A stretch of 31,229 bases of DNA from a virus (lineage: Duplodnaviria; Caudoviricetes): IMG/VR virus record IMGVR_UViG_3300017716_002651, positions 1-31,229 of that record; one strand, 5' to 3'. Positions within the stretch are counted from its first letter, which is position 1; each line of letters opens with the position of its first letter. The position numbers were made by a program, and so were the translations under genes. The notes below the pieces were generated by a model, which ran no database searches, was not told the origin of the DNA, and saw only the letters and a program-made list of their open reading frames with translations. Positions 10,724 through 29,974 of this stretch are shown piece by piece.

Positions 10724-10846
10724 TAACGTATGGTGCTTTGCGAAGGCGGGGCATCGAAGAACAAATGTTGAATTAACCACAAAAGATAATTAGATGCAGA
10801 AAGTTGAAAATATAGATAAAACCCCGCTTTTGCAAAGCACGTGTTA
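10724..10846. repeat. attC-like site S2
   Basis: TAAC-GTATG-GTGCTTTGCGAAGGCGGGG...CCCCGCTTTTGCAAAGCAC-GT-GTTA. Confidence 0.85.
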
Positions 10847-11528
10847 TAAGCAGCCTTTTCGGGTGTTGAATTGCTATGCAGGTATTGGAGGTAATCGTAA
10901 ATACTGGGATGGAAATATTGAAGTAACAGCCATTGAGTTTGATGAAAATATTGCAAGTGTTTATAAAGACTTATATCCAAATGATAATGTTATTGTTTGT
11001 GATGCTCACGAATATCTTTTAAACAATTATGAAAACTTTGATTTTATATGGTGTTCACCGCCTTGCCCTACTCATTCAGTAACTAATCATTTTTTAAATG
11101 CACAAGGAATTAAACGCTATCCCGATATGAAATTGTATCAAGAAATAATATTACTACAAACATTTTTTAAAGGGAAATACATAATTGAAAATGTGAAAAG
11201 CTATTATGAACCATTGATTAAACCGCAGATTAGTGGCAGACATTATTTCTGGGCAAACTTTAAAATTCCTTTGCTAAAATTTGAAAAACAAATAGGCCGA
11301 ATGAATGGAAAGAAAGCAGATTTAGGCGGTAAAATACAAGCAGAATTAAGAACAAACAACCATAAGAAGCTCGGATTTGATTTGTCTAAATATACAGGTA
11401 TTGATAAAGAAAAAGTTTTGAATAATTGTGTTGCTCCCGAAATTGGACTTGCAATATTTCAAAGTGCTTTGGATATTTATGATGCTTCAAAAGTCGAACA
11501 GATTGGATTATTTACGGAGCTCTCATAA
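10794..11528 (+). CDS. Cassette 3: small C5-cytosine DNA methyltransferase
   Basis: Motif I VLNCYAGIGG, motif IV SPPC, motif VI IIENV, late NNCVAP; ATG lies in the loop of S2. Confidence 0.85.
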   Translation: MQKVENIDKTPLLQSTCYKQPFRVLNCYAGIGGNRKYWDGNIEVTAIEFDENIASVYKDLYPNDNVIVCDAHEYLLNNYENFDFIWCSPPCPTHSVTNHFLNAQGIKRYPDMKLYQEIILLQTFFKGKYIIENVKSYYEPLIKPQISGRHYFWANFKIPLLKFEKQIGRMNGKKADLGGKIQAELRTNNHKKLGFDLSKYTGIDKEKVLNNCVAPEIGLAIFQSALDIYDASKVEQIGLFTELS

Positions 11529-13144: not shown

Positions 13145-13270
13145 TAACGGTTCTCGGCTTGGCGAGGTTGGGGGTTTAAAAACACAATCGCTCAAATTAT
13201 TACTAATGTTTAATAAAAGTACAAATGTTTAAATTAGCACAAATGCCCCAATCTTGCCAAACCGATGTTA
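13145..13270. repeat. attC-like site S7
   Basis: TAAC-GGTTC-TCGGCTTGGCGAGGTTGGGG...CCCCAATCTTGCCAAACCGA-T-GTTA. Confidence 0.85.
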
Positions 13271-13926
13271 GTGGCAGTACGGTTTATTTAATGGACTGTA
13301 TCGCCCTAATGAAAGAATACCCTGATAAGTATTTTGATTTGGCTGTGGTTGACCCACCATATGGAATTAATGCTGATGTAAAAAACAGCACTGATAAAAA
13401 GCAAAGTAAAAAAAGTGCTTCCAACTCTAAAAAGTATGGTGAGCAAAAATGGGATGCCGATGTGCCGACCAAAGAATATTTTATTGAGCTTTTTAGAGTA
13501 TCAAAAGAGCAAATTATTTGGGGTGTAAATTACTATCCATTTGACTTTTTAGCTGGTGGTAGAATCTACTGGGATAAATGCGTAACGATGCCAACTTATA
13601 GCGATGGCGAACTTGCTTATTGTTCTTTACTAAATAGCATAAAATCTGTTAAAATAGCTTGGCACGGTATGATACAACACGATATGAAAAACAAAGAAAC
13701 AAGAATACACCCAACTCAAAAGCCTATAAAGCTATATGATTGGATATTCCAAAACTTTGCAAAGGAAGGCGATAAAATACTTGATACACATTTAGGAAGC
13801 GGAAGTAGTCGGATTTCAGCACACAAAGCAAAATTAGACTTTACAGCTTCAGAGCTTGACCCTACATATTTTGCAAACCAAGAAAAAAGGTTTAACGATT
13901 ATAAAAGTCAGCTCACTTTATGGTAG
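13225..13926 (+). CDS. Cassette 8: N6-adenine/N4-cytosine DNA methyltransferase (beta class)
   Basis: DPPY, HPTQKP, ILDTHLGSGS in beta order; ATG lies in the loop of S7. Confidence 0.9.
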   Translation: MFKLAQMPQSCQTDVSGSTVYLMDCIALMKEYPDKYFDLAVVDPPYGINADVKNSTDKKQSKKSASNSKKYGEQKWDADVPTKEYFIELFRVSKEQIIWGVNYYPFDFLAGGRIYWDKCVTMPTYSDGELAYCSLLNSIKSVKIAWHGMIQHDMKNKETRIHPTQKPIKLYDWIFQNFAKEGDKILDTHLGSGSSRISAHKAKLDFTASELDPTYFANQEKRFNDYKSQLTLW

Positions 13927-14351: not shown

Positions 14352-15008
14352 ATGGAAGAAATTTGGAAAGATATTCCTGGTTACGAGGGTTTGTATCAGG
14401 TAAGCTCTTTTGGTAATGTTAAGTCTTTTAAACGTGGAAAAGAAAAGATAATGAGATTATCATTAACTAATGGTTATCTAAGAGTTAGATTATGTAAAGA
14501 GAACCAAAAAAATATGTTTTCATCCCACGTTTTAGTAGCTATGGCATTTCATGGTCACATTCCTGATGGGTTTAACATAGTTGTTGACCATGACGATAAT
14601 AACCCTTTAAATAATCGTGCTGATAATATAAAATTGATTACTCAACGTGAAAATGCCAGTAAGGATAAAAAAAACAAAACGAGTCAATATGTTGGTGTTT
14701 CATGGAATGAAAGGGATGGGAATTGGGTAACTAGAATTAGATTTGGGAAAAGATATATTCATTTAGGATATTTTGAAACTGAAATTGATGCATCAAATGC
14801 TTACCAAAAGGCTTTTTCAGAATGGGAACAAGGACTAGACTTGAATGTGTTATATCCTAAAAAAATAAATTCTAGCCAATACAAATATGTTTATTGGAAT
14901 AAAAATAAGTGTAAATGGATTGCTGAGTACAAAGGTAAATATTTAGGTCATTTTGATACAGAAATTGAGGCACACAAAGCAGTACAAAAATATATATTAA
15001 CATTATAA
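14352..15008 (+). CDS. NUMOD4-HNH-AP2 homing endonuclease
   Basis: EIWKDIPGYEGLYQVSSFGNVKS; VDHDDNNPLNNRADN; two AP2-like SQYVGV/LGYFETEIDA units. Confidence 0.92.
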   Translation: MEEIWKDIPGYEGLYQVSSFGNVKSFKRGKEKIMRLSLTNGYLRVRLCKENQKNMFSSHVLVAMAFHGHIPDGFNIVVDHDDNNPLNNRADNIKLITQRENASKDKKNKTSQYVGVSWNERDGNWVTRIRFGKRYIHLGYFETEIDASNAYQKAFSEWEQGLDLNVLYPKKINSSQYKYVYWNKNKCKWIAEYKGKYLGHFDTEIEAHKAVQKYILTL

Positions 15009-16511: not shown

Positions 16512-16610
16512 GCACTTCCAGTTATGAAAATATTAAAAAGAAATTCCCGTTCCATACCATTGCCTAAGCATATCTTATGCGCTGGAGTGCCTTTGGTATG
16601 GTTCGGGGAA
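16512..16610 (+). ncRNA. Structured (pseudoknot-like) 5' leader of HNH gene 2
   Basis: GCACTTCCAG (16512-21) with CTGGAGTGC (16582-90); TTCCCGTTCCATACCA (16544-59) with TGGTATGGTTCGGGGAA (16594-610); order A-B-A'-B'. Confidence 0.6.
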
Positions 16611-16618
16611 CTTATTTA

Positions 16619-17161
16619 ATGGAAAATAAAATAGAAATTTGGAAAACAATTGATGGTTTTGAGGATTACCAAATCAGTAATTTTGGTAGGGTTAAGTCAT
16701 TCAAAAAATATGTAACCAACGAGAGAATATTATTACCACGAAAAAATAAAGATGGATATTTACAACTTGATTTATGCCAACATGGTAAACAAAAGAGATT
16801 TAAAATTCACATATTAGTTGCTATATATTATAAAGGTCATGTTCCTGATGGCACTATGAATGTTGTTGTTGACCATGATGATAACAACCCTTTAAACAAC
16901 CACGAGGATAACATAAAACTAATTTCCAATCGTGAAAATTGTAGCAAAGATGTAAAAGAAGGTACAAGCCAATACGTTGGTGTTTATTTTAGAAAAGATA
17001 GAAACAAATGGGTTGCACGTATTCAATTTAAAGGCAGACAAATTAACTTGGGTATGTTTAAACTAGAAATAGAGGCTAAAAACGCTTACGATAAGGCACT
17101 TAATGAATGGAAACAAGGGTTAGACCTTAATATATTATACCCAAAAAAAGTACAAAAATAA
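16619..17161 (+). CDS. NUMOD4-HNH-AP2 homing endonuclease (paralog of 14352)
   Basis: EIWKTIDGFEDYQISNFGRVKS; VVDHDDNNPLNNHEDN; one AP2-like unit; start moved to MENKIEIW. Confidence 0.92.
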   Translation: MENKIEIWKTIDGFEDYQISNFGRVKSFKKYVTNERILLPRKNKDGYLQLDLCQHGKQKRFKIHILVAIYYKGHVPDGTMNVVVDHDDNNPLNNHEDNIKLISNRENCSKDVKEGTSQYVGVYFRKDRNKWVARIQFKGRQINLGMFKLEIEAKNAYDKALNEWKQGLDLNILYPKKVQK

Positions 17162-27083: not shown

Positions 27084-27330
27084 ACACAAGCAAATAGTTA
27101 TATATAACTGTGAAACTAAGCAAGTAATCTACATATTTGTAGGATATGCTGCTTGTTCAAAGTTATTATTTCCAAAAGAATCTAAGCAGTATTTTACTAA
27201 AAAGATAAGATACCACATGGAGATTAAGAAAAAACTTATGTGTGATTTTTTAGGATTTGAAATTGCTATTAGAAAAGCCTCAGAGGCTCAAATTACTTTA
27301 TTAGGAACAGAAGATTATATTAAACTTTAA
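27073..27330 (+). CDS. Hypothetical protein (NUMOD1-like N-terminus possible)
   Basis: KQIVIYNCETKQVIYIF. Confidence 0.5.
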   Translation: MNTEHKQIVIYNCETKQVIYIFVGYAACSKLLFPKESKQYFTKKIRYHMEIKKKLMCDFLGFEIAIRKASEAQITLLGTEDYIKL

Positions 27331-27333
27331 ATT

Positions 27334-29448
27334 ATGGGAATAAATGTTTTATCATGCTTTGATGGTTGCAGTGGCGGAAATCAAGCATTAGAAAGAATAG
27401 GAATTAAAGTTGACAATTACTTTGCAAGTGAGATTGATAAGTATGCCATCCAAGTTACTATGGCTAATTATCCTAATACTATTCAATTGGGTAGTGTTGT
27501 TGATGTGGATTGTAGTAAACTACCTAAGATTGATTTATTAATTGGAGGTTCACCTTGCCAAAGTTTTAGCTTTGCAGGTAAGCGAAAAGGAATGTCAACA
27601 AAATGCGAAACCGAGATATTAACCCTAGAGCATTACTTGGAACTAAAATCAGATGGTTTTGAATTTGAGGGGCAGTCTTATTTATTTTGGGAGTACATGA
27701 GAATACTAAATGAAGTTAAGCCTAAGTATTTTCTGCTTGAAAATGTAGAAATGGGCGAAAAGTGGGAAAAGGTATTAAGCAAAGCTATTGGAGTAAATGG
27801 TATTCATATTAATTCTGCTTTGGTTTCGGCTCAAAATAGGAAGCGTATCTATTGGTTTAATTTTGGTATTCCTACAATAGATTTGTTTGGAGAAACTACC
27901 TATCACATACCTCAACCAAAAGATAAGGGTATTTTATTGAAAGATATTTTAGATAGTGAAGTTGATGAAAAGTATTTTTTGAGCGAGAAAATGTTAAAAT
28001 CATTAATGGCAGACAAAGACCTTGGTAATGGAGTTTGGAAAGGCATGGAAACAAGGGAACTTTTTGAAAAAGGACATACTATTACAGCTAGAATGGGCAA
28101 ATCTGATAATTACATTAAGATTGATAAAAAAGGAAATGTAAAGGATAACCAAGAAAAAGCATCTTGTTTCACAGCAGGAGGACATTCTGGTGGAAATCAT
28201 TCTGACATGGATTTAATTGTACACAATACAATGCCAAGAAGTAGTACAACAGGGAAAGGAGGAACAGGTCATTTAAGCAGAAACGATGGTAAAACTTATT
28301 GCTTAGATACTGGTAATACAAATGCTGTTGAGATAGTGGCAATGAGAGGCAGAGGTGAAAAAGGTAATATTGAGCAACAACTTAAAACCAATGGTACTGA
28401 TAAAAGTAATTCACTAACAACTGCTCAGAAAGATAACCTTGTAAGACAATTAAACCCATCAACAGAAAGTAATGGTAAGCAACCATACCAACAAAACAGA
28501 ATTTACGATATAGAAGGTATAAGTCCTGCTTTAATGGCTCAATTACCAAAAGGCAGTACAATGATTAATACTTCACGAATTAGAAGATTAACTCCAACCG
28601 AATGCGAAAAATTGCAGACAATGAATCCAGGATATACTAAAAAAGGTTTGGAAAATCATTTCCAATTATTTAACTTTACAGGAAATAAATTTACCTTATG
28701 TCAAAGATTTGTAAAGAAGAAAATTGTAACCAACCAATTTCAAGTAGAGAAACTGAATTATGCCACAAACACCATTATAGACTTATTAGAAACGGAACAA
28801 CTGAATTATCAAGATCACTTGTTGACCACTCTAAAAAATGTATCGTGGATGGTTGTGAACGAAAGCAACAATCTTCAACAGAAACGTGTCTTATGCACTA
28901 TAAAAGATGGAAAAGATATGGGGCATTTATTATTCCCGAAAGAATTAATAAATCAGAATTTAAATGTAAGTTTTGTGATACGAAAGTTGGAAGGTCAGGA
29001 AGCCTTGGAATGTGTAACAAACATTTCCAAATGTTCAGATTACATGGAGACCCATTACATACCGACCAAAGAAGGCTTGCTCCAAACGCATACGGATATT
29101 ATAGAGATACCGATGGAGTCGAATTTCACAGAAAAATTGCTGAACAAAAAATTGGTAGAAAACTTATTAAGGGAGTCGAAGTCGTACATCATATTGACCT
29201 TAATAAAATTAATAATAACCCAAGCAATTTACAAGTCCTTACAAAATCAGAACACGCCCGTACACATCAACAGCTTAATAAAATTGCAGGACAACTCATT
29301 AGAGCTGGAGTTATTGTATATAGAAACGGAGAATATTGTATCAATTTCTGATAGTATGCGTTACAAAATGATTGGAAATGGTTGGACAATTTCTGTGATA
29401 GCCCACATATTTAGTTACCTCAACCTATCTTCAGAAACAACTTCCTAA
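27334..29448 (+). CDS. C5-cytosine DNA methyltransferase with ~230-codon insertion between motifs IX and X
   Basis: VLSCFDG, GGSPCQ, LLENV, QNRKRIYW, repeated variable-region units, RRLTPTECEKLQT, then insertion, then SDSMRYKMIGNGW. Confidence 0.92.
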   Translation: MGINVLSCFDGCSGGNQALERIGIKVDNYFASEIDKYAIQVTMANYPNTIQLGSVVDVDCSKLPKIDLLIGGSPCQSFSFAGKRKGMSTKCETEILTLEHYLELKSDGFEFEGQSYLFWEYMRILNEVKPKYFLLENVEMGEKWEKVLSKAIGVNGIHINSALVSAQNRKRIYWFNFGIPTIDLFGETTYHIPQPKDKGILLKDILDSEVDEKYFLSEKMLKSLMADKDLGNGVWKGMETRELFEKGHTITARMGKSDNYIKIDKKGNVKDNQEKASCFTAGGHSGGNHSDMDLIVHNTMPRSSTTGKGGTGHLSRNDGKTYCLDTGNTNAVEIVAMRGRGEKGNIEQQLKTNGTDKSNSLTTAQKDNLVRQLNPSTESNGKQPYQQNRIYDIEGISPALMAQLPKGSTMINTSRIRRLTPTECEKLQTMNPGYTKKGLENHFQLFNFTGNKFTLCQRFVKKKIVTNQFQVEKLNYATNTIIDLLETEQLNYQDHLLTTLKNVSWMVVNESNNLQQKRVLCTIKDGKDMGHLLFPKELINQNLNVSFVIRKLEGQEALECVTNISKCSDYMETHYIPTKEGLLQTHTDIIEIPMESNFTEKLLNKKLVENLLRESKSYIILTLIKLIITQAIYKSLQNQNTPVHINSLIKLQDNSLELELLYIETENIVSISDSMRYKMIGNGWTISVIAHIFSYLNLSSETTS
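28647..28678 (+). promoter_or_regulatory. Internal promoter for the nested HNH gene
   Basis: TTTG-N20-TAACTTTA (one mismatch to TAnnTTTG), overlapping hairpin TTGGAAA-ATCA-TTTCCAA, 19 nt before ATG 28698. Confidence 0.55.
28698..29351 (+). CDS. HNH endonuclease nested out of frame in the MTase
   Basis: Three Cys/His repeats (C...C...C-x2-H-x2-R...G) and HRKIAE...VVHHIDLNKINNNPSNL...EHARTH. Confidence 0.9.
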   Translation: MSKICKEENCNQPISSRETELCHKHHYRLIRNGTTELSRSLVDHSKKCIVDGCERKQQSSTETCLMHYKRWKRYGAFIIPERINKSEFKCKFCDTKVGRSGSLGMCNKHFQMFRLHGDPLHTDQRRLAPNAYGYYRDTDGVEFHRKIAEQKIGRKLIKGVEVVHHIDLNKINNNPSNLQVLTKSEHARTHQQLNKIAGQLIRAGVIVYRNGEYCINF

Positions 29449-29974
29449 GGCCAATTCTTCCAGCATGGTATAGCAAGAAACAAGCTCCAATAATTGCAAG
29501 CCAATTTTTGAACTGTTCCCAAATCTTAACATACCACTTATCCTTTATAATAGGTGCTGGTTTAACAATTACTTGTGAATGGGTACTTATACTATCTTTT
29601 GATTTATAGCTTTGCAATTCGCTTGTAAGTGACTTAATTTTATAACTAAATCTACTTTCAATAGCAGATATATCAACGAAATACTTCACTTTATTGTCTT
29701 TAACAACTATTTTAATAGCAACATTTTCATTTTTGAACTTATATGTGCCATCCTCTGAGGTAGAAAGTTCACCAGAATCTTTTACCGCAGCAGTGTAAAC
29801 AATGCTATCTTTAGTAATAATAGCCACTGAATCTTTTATGATAGTTGAATCTTTGTAGGTTACTACTAAGCTATCTTTGGTAGTTGTAGTTCCTGGATAT
29901 TTTCGCTCACACATTTTTTGTGTTGCACAACTTCCTAGAAATAGTGATAAAAGTGCTATTAATATAATTCTCAT
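29420..29974 (-). CDS. Lipoprotein, probable unimolecular spanin
   Basis: Lipobox LFLGS-C, beta-rich middle, C-terminal TM WLAIIGACFLLY; follows the endolysin. Confidence 0.7.
   Translation of the reverse strand: MRIILIALLSLFLGSCATQKMCERKYPGTTTTKDSLVVTYKDSTIIKDSVAIITKDSIVYTAAVKDSGELSTSEDGTYKFKNENVAIKIVVKDNKVKYFVDISAIESRFSYKIKSLTSELQSYKSKDSISTHSQVIVKPAPIIKDKWYVKIWEQFKNWLAIIGACFLLYHAGRIGLRKLFLKIG

Follow-up and report, generated by a model that had tools for sequence, protein, structure and literature searches.

Overprinting of a likely homing HNH endonuclease gene in the open reading frame of phage C5 cytosine methyltransferases

How does an enzyme gene fare when a complete second gene, written in another reading frame, stands between two of its conserved motifs? 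The question is posed by a C5 cytosine methyltransferase (MTase) in 31,229 nucleotides of viral DNA (IMG/VR record IMGVR_UViG_3300017716_002651), the whole of which is called the window here. The original prediction, made from these letters without database searches, was that a homing endonuclease of the HNH type is tolerated by overprinting, with the MTase either carrying the shadow translation as a loop or bypassing it.

The methyltransferase and the gene within it

At about 32% GC, the window looks like phage DNA; other methylases, a DnaB helicase and free-standing HNH genes are among its contents. The MTase ORF (27334..29448, plus strand) encodes 704 amino acids without interruption and matches PF00145 (E 7e-36). 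It has the conserved motifs of the C5 class and, in prediction, its fold, including a motif X that follows the insert. Among annotated phages, the top matches to the catalytic domain are methyltransferases of Bacteroides and Phocaeicola phages (60–66%), so the cellular host of the window phage is probably a Bacteroidota. The motif IX region (RRLTPTECEKLQT..GYTK; 28582..28641, plus strand), located by motif pattern and homolog alignment, forms the 5' flank of the insert. The motif X region (SDSMRYKMIGNGW) and the C-terminus occupy 29347..29448 of the same strand, as placed by alignment and predicted structure. The numbering of motifs IX and X is that of the C5-MTase literature. Positions 27960-28580 form a long, modular variable region, poorly conserved among close alleles, of which 210–255 nt are skipped in other contigs. 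Two further methyltransferase genes (10794-11528 and 13225-13926), one short and C5-like and one of N6/N4 type, bring the phage total to three. Two similar free-standing NUMOD4-HNH-AP2 endonuclease genes (14352-15008 and 16577-17161) lie on either side of the DnaB helicase gene.

Between the end of GYTK at 28641 and the start of SDSMRYK at 29347 lies an insert of 705 nt (28642..29346, plus strand), close to the roughly 700 nt first described. It lengthens the host frame by 235 codons, whose translation has no Pfam match. Alignment with insert-free homologs mapped the site: motifs IX and X are 30 residues apart in 98 of the 100 such homologs listed and 263 apart in the window MTase. The insert replaces some two to three loop residues of the empty alleles, in which loop length is slightly variable (the other two of the 100), and the exact junctions are uncertain within a few codons. 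Inside the insert, the HNH gene (28698..29351, plus strand) encodes 217 amino acids in the +2 frame and matches PF13392 (E 1e-11). Thus, a complete HNH ORF does lie in an alternative frame of the methylase insert, as had been read from the letters. The accompanying statement that both frames are open for about 230 codons holds for the host frame (235 codons) and overstates the HNH frame (217 codons). Within the 705 nt, the host, +1 and +2 frames contain 0, 31 and 2 stops respectively. The HNH stop, TGA at 29349-29351, overlies the host Ser-Asp codons of SDSMRY, which is where MTase homology had been said to resume.

The HNH protein consists of three Cys/His repeats, predicted to bind zinc, followed by an HNH_3 core at residues 143–188. 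H164, H165, N173 and N177 are invariant in 27 sequences and the PF13392 match is above its cut-off, indicating an intact catalytic motif. No close relatives were found among 50,697 annotated phage records (E 1e-5, 80% cover), and a fold search with the HNH model returned nothing at E 0.001 or better. A public contig is identical to 27200-29600 (0 differences, depth 124), although it may be the source of the window DNA itself.

The absence of stops from the MTase frame had been judged very unlikely to arise by chance, and tests in the window agree. When the HNH was recoded with window codon usage, a mean of 15.1 host-frame stops resulted and 0 of 20,000 recodings were stop-free; shuffling its own codons under two schemes likewise gave 0 stop-free sequences in 20,000. 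Nineteen other window genes have 5.0–9.7 stops per 100 codons in the equivalent shifted frame. Avoidance of NTA codons before A or G, noted earlier in part of the gene, extends to all seven NTA codons of the HNH, which precede C or T, and none of its five NTG codons precedes A; in the other window genes, 305 of 451 NTA codons precede A or G. The open host frame in the window is strongly non-random.

The host frame and the search for splicing across the family

A search with MTase residues 400–704 matched 202 proteins, the best 120 of which comprised the window's own, 19 insert-bearing and 100 insert-free proteins. Among these matches, at least 19 other proteins (32–92% identity) keep the host frame open across the insert; since such a search retrieves open-frame copies only, it does not test the open frame. 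Loci were also fetched by the HNH alone. A first viral scan supplied nine, the 352 metagenome matches and the 187 viral matches their best 80 each, and the genome matches all 16. Ninety-three of the 185 loci scored at least 100 bits with the HNH profile; L086, truncated by the end of its contig, was dropped, and clustering at 95% nucleotide identity left 74 non-redundant clusters. Motifs were found by pattern or by eye; in several cases the contig stops short of one of the two motifs, and in L072 motif IX is missing.

Seventy of the 74 clusters, among them L010, which is the window's own record, are at the motif IX–X site of C5 methyltransferases. Over the HNH, these 70 embedded clusters together lack any host-frame stop, where amino-acid sequence and local base composition would predict about 678. 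The host frame is thus free of stops across the insert in the family as in the window; relatives with stops there, which would have spoken against the overprinted reading, were not seen among the embedded clusters. The hosts are diverse, with motif X of the types GNAV (22), GNGW (21) and GNSI (13) among 68 scored. The HNH stop lies 25 or 28 nt before the motif X Gly-Asn in most loci and varies in identity (TAG 36, TGA 16 and TAA 14 of 66); it is therefore made of host codons. In three clusters (L055, L062/L064/L098 and L095), a motif I-like sequence follows motif X, which suggests that circularly permuted or split methyltransferases also carry the element. Other HNH lineages are overprinted in C5 methyltransferases at sites nearer motifs VI–VIII, with the host frame open (L108:526-1053; L115, L109, L124, L118, L141 and L147, at about 2080-2780).

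The four clusters outside a C5 MTase (L028, L099, L100 and L102) have 5, 9, 3 and 14 stops respectively. In L028 (2498-3142), a free-standing close relative is followed, past its stop codon, by a remnant of the host C-terminus, and has gained 5 host-frame stops versus 17.8 expected at saturation; it looks like an escaped element. In L099 (2087-2971) and L100 (2072-3166), a PAPS-reductase-like gene contains a related HNH as an in-frame fusion (PF01507 plus PF13392). An (AG)n run follows the HNH, and the downstream host part is in different frames in the two loci. This arrangement suggests slippage or phase variation.

Lesions are found on both sides of the overlap. L064 and L098 have a stop inside the HNH and a host frame that is still open, and their sibling L062 is intact. 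In five of the 70 clusters, the host looks damaged by other lesions, the rest of the shifted frame being stop-free: a one-base shift early in the insert breaks both frames in L024/L170, short out-of-frame insertions lie in motif IX in L043–L045 and L065, a stop falls in motif X near the contig end in L069, and the 5' part is lost in L072. Recent damage or assembly error might explain why the remainder of the frame is still open in these broken hosts. The L043–L045 and L065 insertions, from two lineages, share their point of entry in motif IX; they start with TGA and are followed by an in-frame ATG, and could be a footprint or a natural split.

Split C5 methyltransferases exist, and the MTase might likewise be made in two pieces, its motif X peptide starting internally with the help of an internal promoter and assembling in trans. 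L043–L045 and L065, with motif IX severed from the open frame and an ATG just downstream, would fit such an arrangement. It would, however, need openness only after the internal start, yet the frame is open from motif IX to motif X wherever both motifs were scored in frame, and no in-frame Met is found among the conserved host-frame columns; a two-piece enzyme is thus very unlikely. A related proposal takes the insert-bearing methylase to be without activity or dispensable, its frame being open as a leftover or for translation coupling only. Orphan phage methylases can be dispensable, according to section 4.1 of PMC11855218 in its accessible form, and the broken hosts point the same way. An unselected frame accumulates stops, however, as the five in L028 illustrate, and the window MTase retains its catalytic and motif X residues, which are conserved among filled alleles, so that hardly any credence can be given to an enzyme without function.

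No splicing element was expected from the first reading, and Rfam, Pfam, leader length and conservation agree. An Rfam search of 27300-29600 at E values up to 10 found no intron, its four weak matches being far below gathering scores. The HNH leaders are short, some of them about 35 nt, and dissimilar to one another; with such leaders, and the HNH stop lying on host codons, the space needed by a group I or II core is lacking. The 3' end of the insert has no conserved bases beyond coding needs, only two of 164 third-position columns being at least 90% conserved, and the insert folds no better than its shuffles (z 0.25). Group I R/S-like motifs, searched with mismatches allowed, occur together in one of 68 inserts, a count that carries no background control. 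At the sequence level, the conserved ribozyme core with ends outside the ORF that marks a group I or II intron is lacking. DNA contigs of four runs contain no joint across the insert, which, being DNA, has no bearing on RNA splicing.

Removal of the insert from RNA by unrecognised splicing, or its skipping by ribosomal bypassing, with the open frame as a backup, would spare the enzyme 235 residues beside the SAM-binding motif X that could burden it. Both routes are unlikely given the missing intron and core, the unconserved 3' end and the folding result, and neither requires 0 stops in 70 clusters. As ribosomal bypassing needs no open frame, read-through is favoured, and of the two fates first proposed for the host it is the loop that is preferred over bypassing.

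Excision from the protein, in contrast, would require an open host frame. A non-canonical, intein-like reaction could use the Ser of SDS, directly after the insert, as its nucleophile, and the same hint was raised by the ShiLan authors in section 3.2 of the available text (PMC11855218). The host-frame insert nevertheless has no Pfam match, no conserved terminal Cys/Ser and no conserved His-Asn/Gln; its last residues vary freely. The Hint domain with N-terminal Cys/Ser and C-terminal His-Asn/Gln that marks an intein is thus lacking. The Ser of SDS is present in empty alleles too, and only two host-frame columns reach 85% conservation, both read across conserved HNH codons. Protein excision is most unlikely. 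The layout is that of a hidden out-of-frame HNH with no detectable intron or intein.

Spread among alleles and proposed expression of the two frames

Host alleles with and without the insert are intermingled. In one protein (P0002), the insert is 92% identical to that of the window and the catalytic domain 76%. Across the 13 filled alleles in which the catalytic domain is complete, identity to the window in that domain is at most 77%, whereas the best of 96 empty alleles reaches 87%; empty alleles are common and closer to the window host than filled ones, as homing predicts. Filled alleles are scattered in a catalytic-domain tree of 14 filled and 28 of 88 distinct empty rows, and monophyly of 12 filled alleles versus the 28 empty ones, with two long-branch filled rows left out, was rejected (p-AU 4e-74). 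Contigs of two other runs match the insert and short flanks only (28600-29390, 41 differences; 28633-29412, 50 differences), beyond which they diverge. HNH and host identities are correlated (rho 0.40), which makes much of the element's history co-descent; part of the patchiness could also come from repeated loss or from domain shuffling. The disjunct distribution among host alleles fits homing by the HNH, as far as sequences can tell.

The HNH may be expressed from its own leader. The promoter-like sequence first seen in the insert has a counterpart in a predicted Bacteroidota-type promoter (28647..28678, plus strand), with TTTG at 28647, a gap of 20 nt and TAACTTTA at 28671, one mismatch from the consensus TTG-N17-23-TANNTTTG given in the accessible part of bioRxiv 10.1101/172254. 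It is not of the sigma-70 type, a sigma-70 scan of the window leader having found no site, and singly it is not above chance (seven matches in the window versus a mean of 4.3). Significance is reached family-wide only. Leaders were scanned in 60 of the 70 clusters, ten having no in-frame motif IX match and a few starts being mis-assigned. The sigma-70 consensus is matched at 10/12 or better in 16 of 60 leaders and the Bacteroidota consensus at 8/9 or better in 15 of 60. One motif or the other is present in 28 of 60 leaders versus one of 60 host segments of equal length, shuffles giving about 1.5 each.

Whether the shadow frame is made as protein can be approached through the silent sites of the HNH. 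Its third positions are the second positions of host codons, and A at a fourfold HNH site gives host Glu, Asp, Gln or His. At fourfold sites free of stop constraint, embedded elements have more A than neighbouring genes, by 0.186 (an excess in 62 of 63); for free-standing HNH genes the figure is 0.079 (an excess in 28 of 33; p 2e-6 between the two). This gap persists below 40% GC (p 0.001) and in GC-matched pairs (p 8e-5) but is not significant at 40–50% GC (p 0.24). The fourfold-A value of the window HNH, 0.65, is the highest of 20 genes, the window's free-standing HNH genes having 0.30 and 0.29. Compared with stop-free recodings, host-frame Glu, Gln and Asp are enriched 1.5–1.6-fold and Arg, Trp, Phe and Val depleted. 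Because embedded elements share ancestry, the bias towards polar host-frame residues is suggestive, not proof, of a translated shadow frame.

Constraint at individual silent sites is not clearly above the host baseline. A silent-site test gave p<1e-3 in 11 of 55 HNH tests, against a baseline of six of 54 for non-overlapped host codons, and the HNH Phe codon is TTT in 65 of 66, giving host Leu. The two host-frame columns that are at least 85% conserved are both hydrophobic and read across conserved HNH codons. A candidate metal clasp of two host-frame cysteines conserved in a smaller set, C456 and C560, was set aside: both residues read across an HNH ATG and its next base, at which A would give a host-frame stop, and neither is conserved in the wider set. 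An AlphaFold model based on 93 filled and empty sequences has a confident catalytic core, motifs IX and X at pLDDT 84–93, an insert mostly below 50 and predicted strands at both insert ends. Over the full DNMT3A domain, residues 1–700 of the model align with a Z of 28.1 (rmsd 2.1, 233 aligned), and with M.HhaI the Z is 23.6. The inclusion of empty alleles in the sequence alignment favours a closed core. The MTase fold is predicted to close around the insert as a surface loop.

Taken with the open frame across 70 clusters and the patchy spread, these data support the proposal of an overprinted homing endonuclease without a splicing element. The element is likely a homing HNH in the +2 frame of a C5 MTase that is probably translated straight through it, the 235 extra residues forming a predicted surface loop between motifs IX and X. 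The HNH would be made separately from its short, promoter-bearing leader and would nick or cut empty alleles near the motif IX–X junction, into which recombination repair would copy the element. Selection for a working methylase would then purge host-frame stops and favour polar host-frame residues. A broader reading, with a slightly better than even chance of being right, sets overprinting alongside introns and inteins as a third general way for homing endonucleases to persist in genes. The cassette would have spread through one loop of C5 MTases in many hosts, its shadow frame would have turned into a new protein segment selected for solubility, and other HNH lineages would have done likewise at other methyltransferase sites. 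Such a cassette would be self-contained, with its own promoter, its HNH and a stop codon borrowed from host motif X codons. If the read-through of the C5 lineage is right, a selfish nuclease can enter a gene with no means of splicing, new protein sequence hundreds of residues long arises as a by-product, and annotation that allows one gene per frame would lose either the nuclease or the full-length methylase.

Comparison with known systems

Several known systems resemble this element in part. The HNH of the I-HmuI type, found in group I introns, also has an HNH_3 core with DNA-binding repeats, and I-HmuI ranked third in the HNH fold search, at a non-significant E of 0.24. The C5-lineage insert differs in having no ribozyme, an ORF that fills it to the 3' junction and an open host frame. 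A mobile insertion without an intron is reportedly tolerated in Aeh1 nrdA, where the host gene is fragmented, and T4 gene 60 is said to tolerate an insert without splicing by bypassing it. The window host ORF, unlike these, is continuous. Inteins with out-of-frame or antisense endonucleases share an other-frame endonuclease in an in-frame insert, but in the available text they keep splicing domains at both ends (bioRxiv 10.1101/2025.01.02.630785), of which none was found in the C5 lineage.

The ShiLan domain, a hidden out-of-frame HNH in mycobacteriophage DNA methylases, was described with a read-through loop proposed without experiments (PMC11855218), and a hidden out-of-frame HNH also forms the insertion in mycobacteriophage Pacc40 gp60 (Gosselin et al. 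2023, PMC9957025). In the accessible parts of these papers, both share with the C5 element an HNH that occupies the third (+2) frame of the methylase insert, a stop-free host frame, an HNH stop at the 3' end of the insert, no intron or intein signal and a patchy spread. However, ShiLan gp65 is an N6/N4 methylase (PF01555) and the window host a C5 enzyme (PF00145), and the two HNH proteins have the core alone in common (43% over 47 amino acids). In the strict sense, then, this is not a ShiLan domain, given the different host class and a match limited to 47 core residues; it is ShiLan-like in its working and outside the ShiLan sequence family. For ShiLan, no RBS was found and leaderless translation was proposed, in the text at hand (PMC11855218), whereas promoter motifs stand in many leaders of the C5 lineage. 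No paper on the C5 lineage turned up in the literature searched; the GitHub hit lists of the 2025 paper and subscription papers lay outside that search and may include C5 hosts.

Simple read-through of such inserts was left open by Arsenault, Gosselin and Gogarten in 2025 (PMC11855218, accessible text). With 70 clusters, many of them AT-rich, selection on the open frame is measurable in the C5 lineage, a test of which the accessible part of that paper (PMC11855218) has no equivalent. The C5 lineage bears on read-through at the level of populations, through 0 versus about 678 stops, a decaying escaped copy and an HNH that is dead while its host frame stays open, and its natural empty and filled alleles make it a clean test system. 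By its sequence, the C5-methyltransferase element is a separate, widespread lineage of the layout published in 2025 (PMC11855218).
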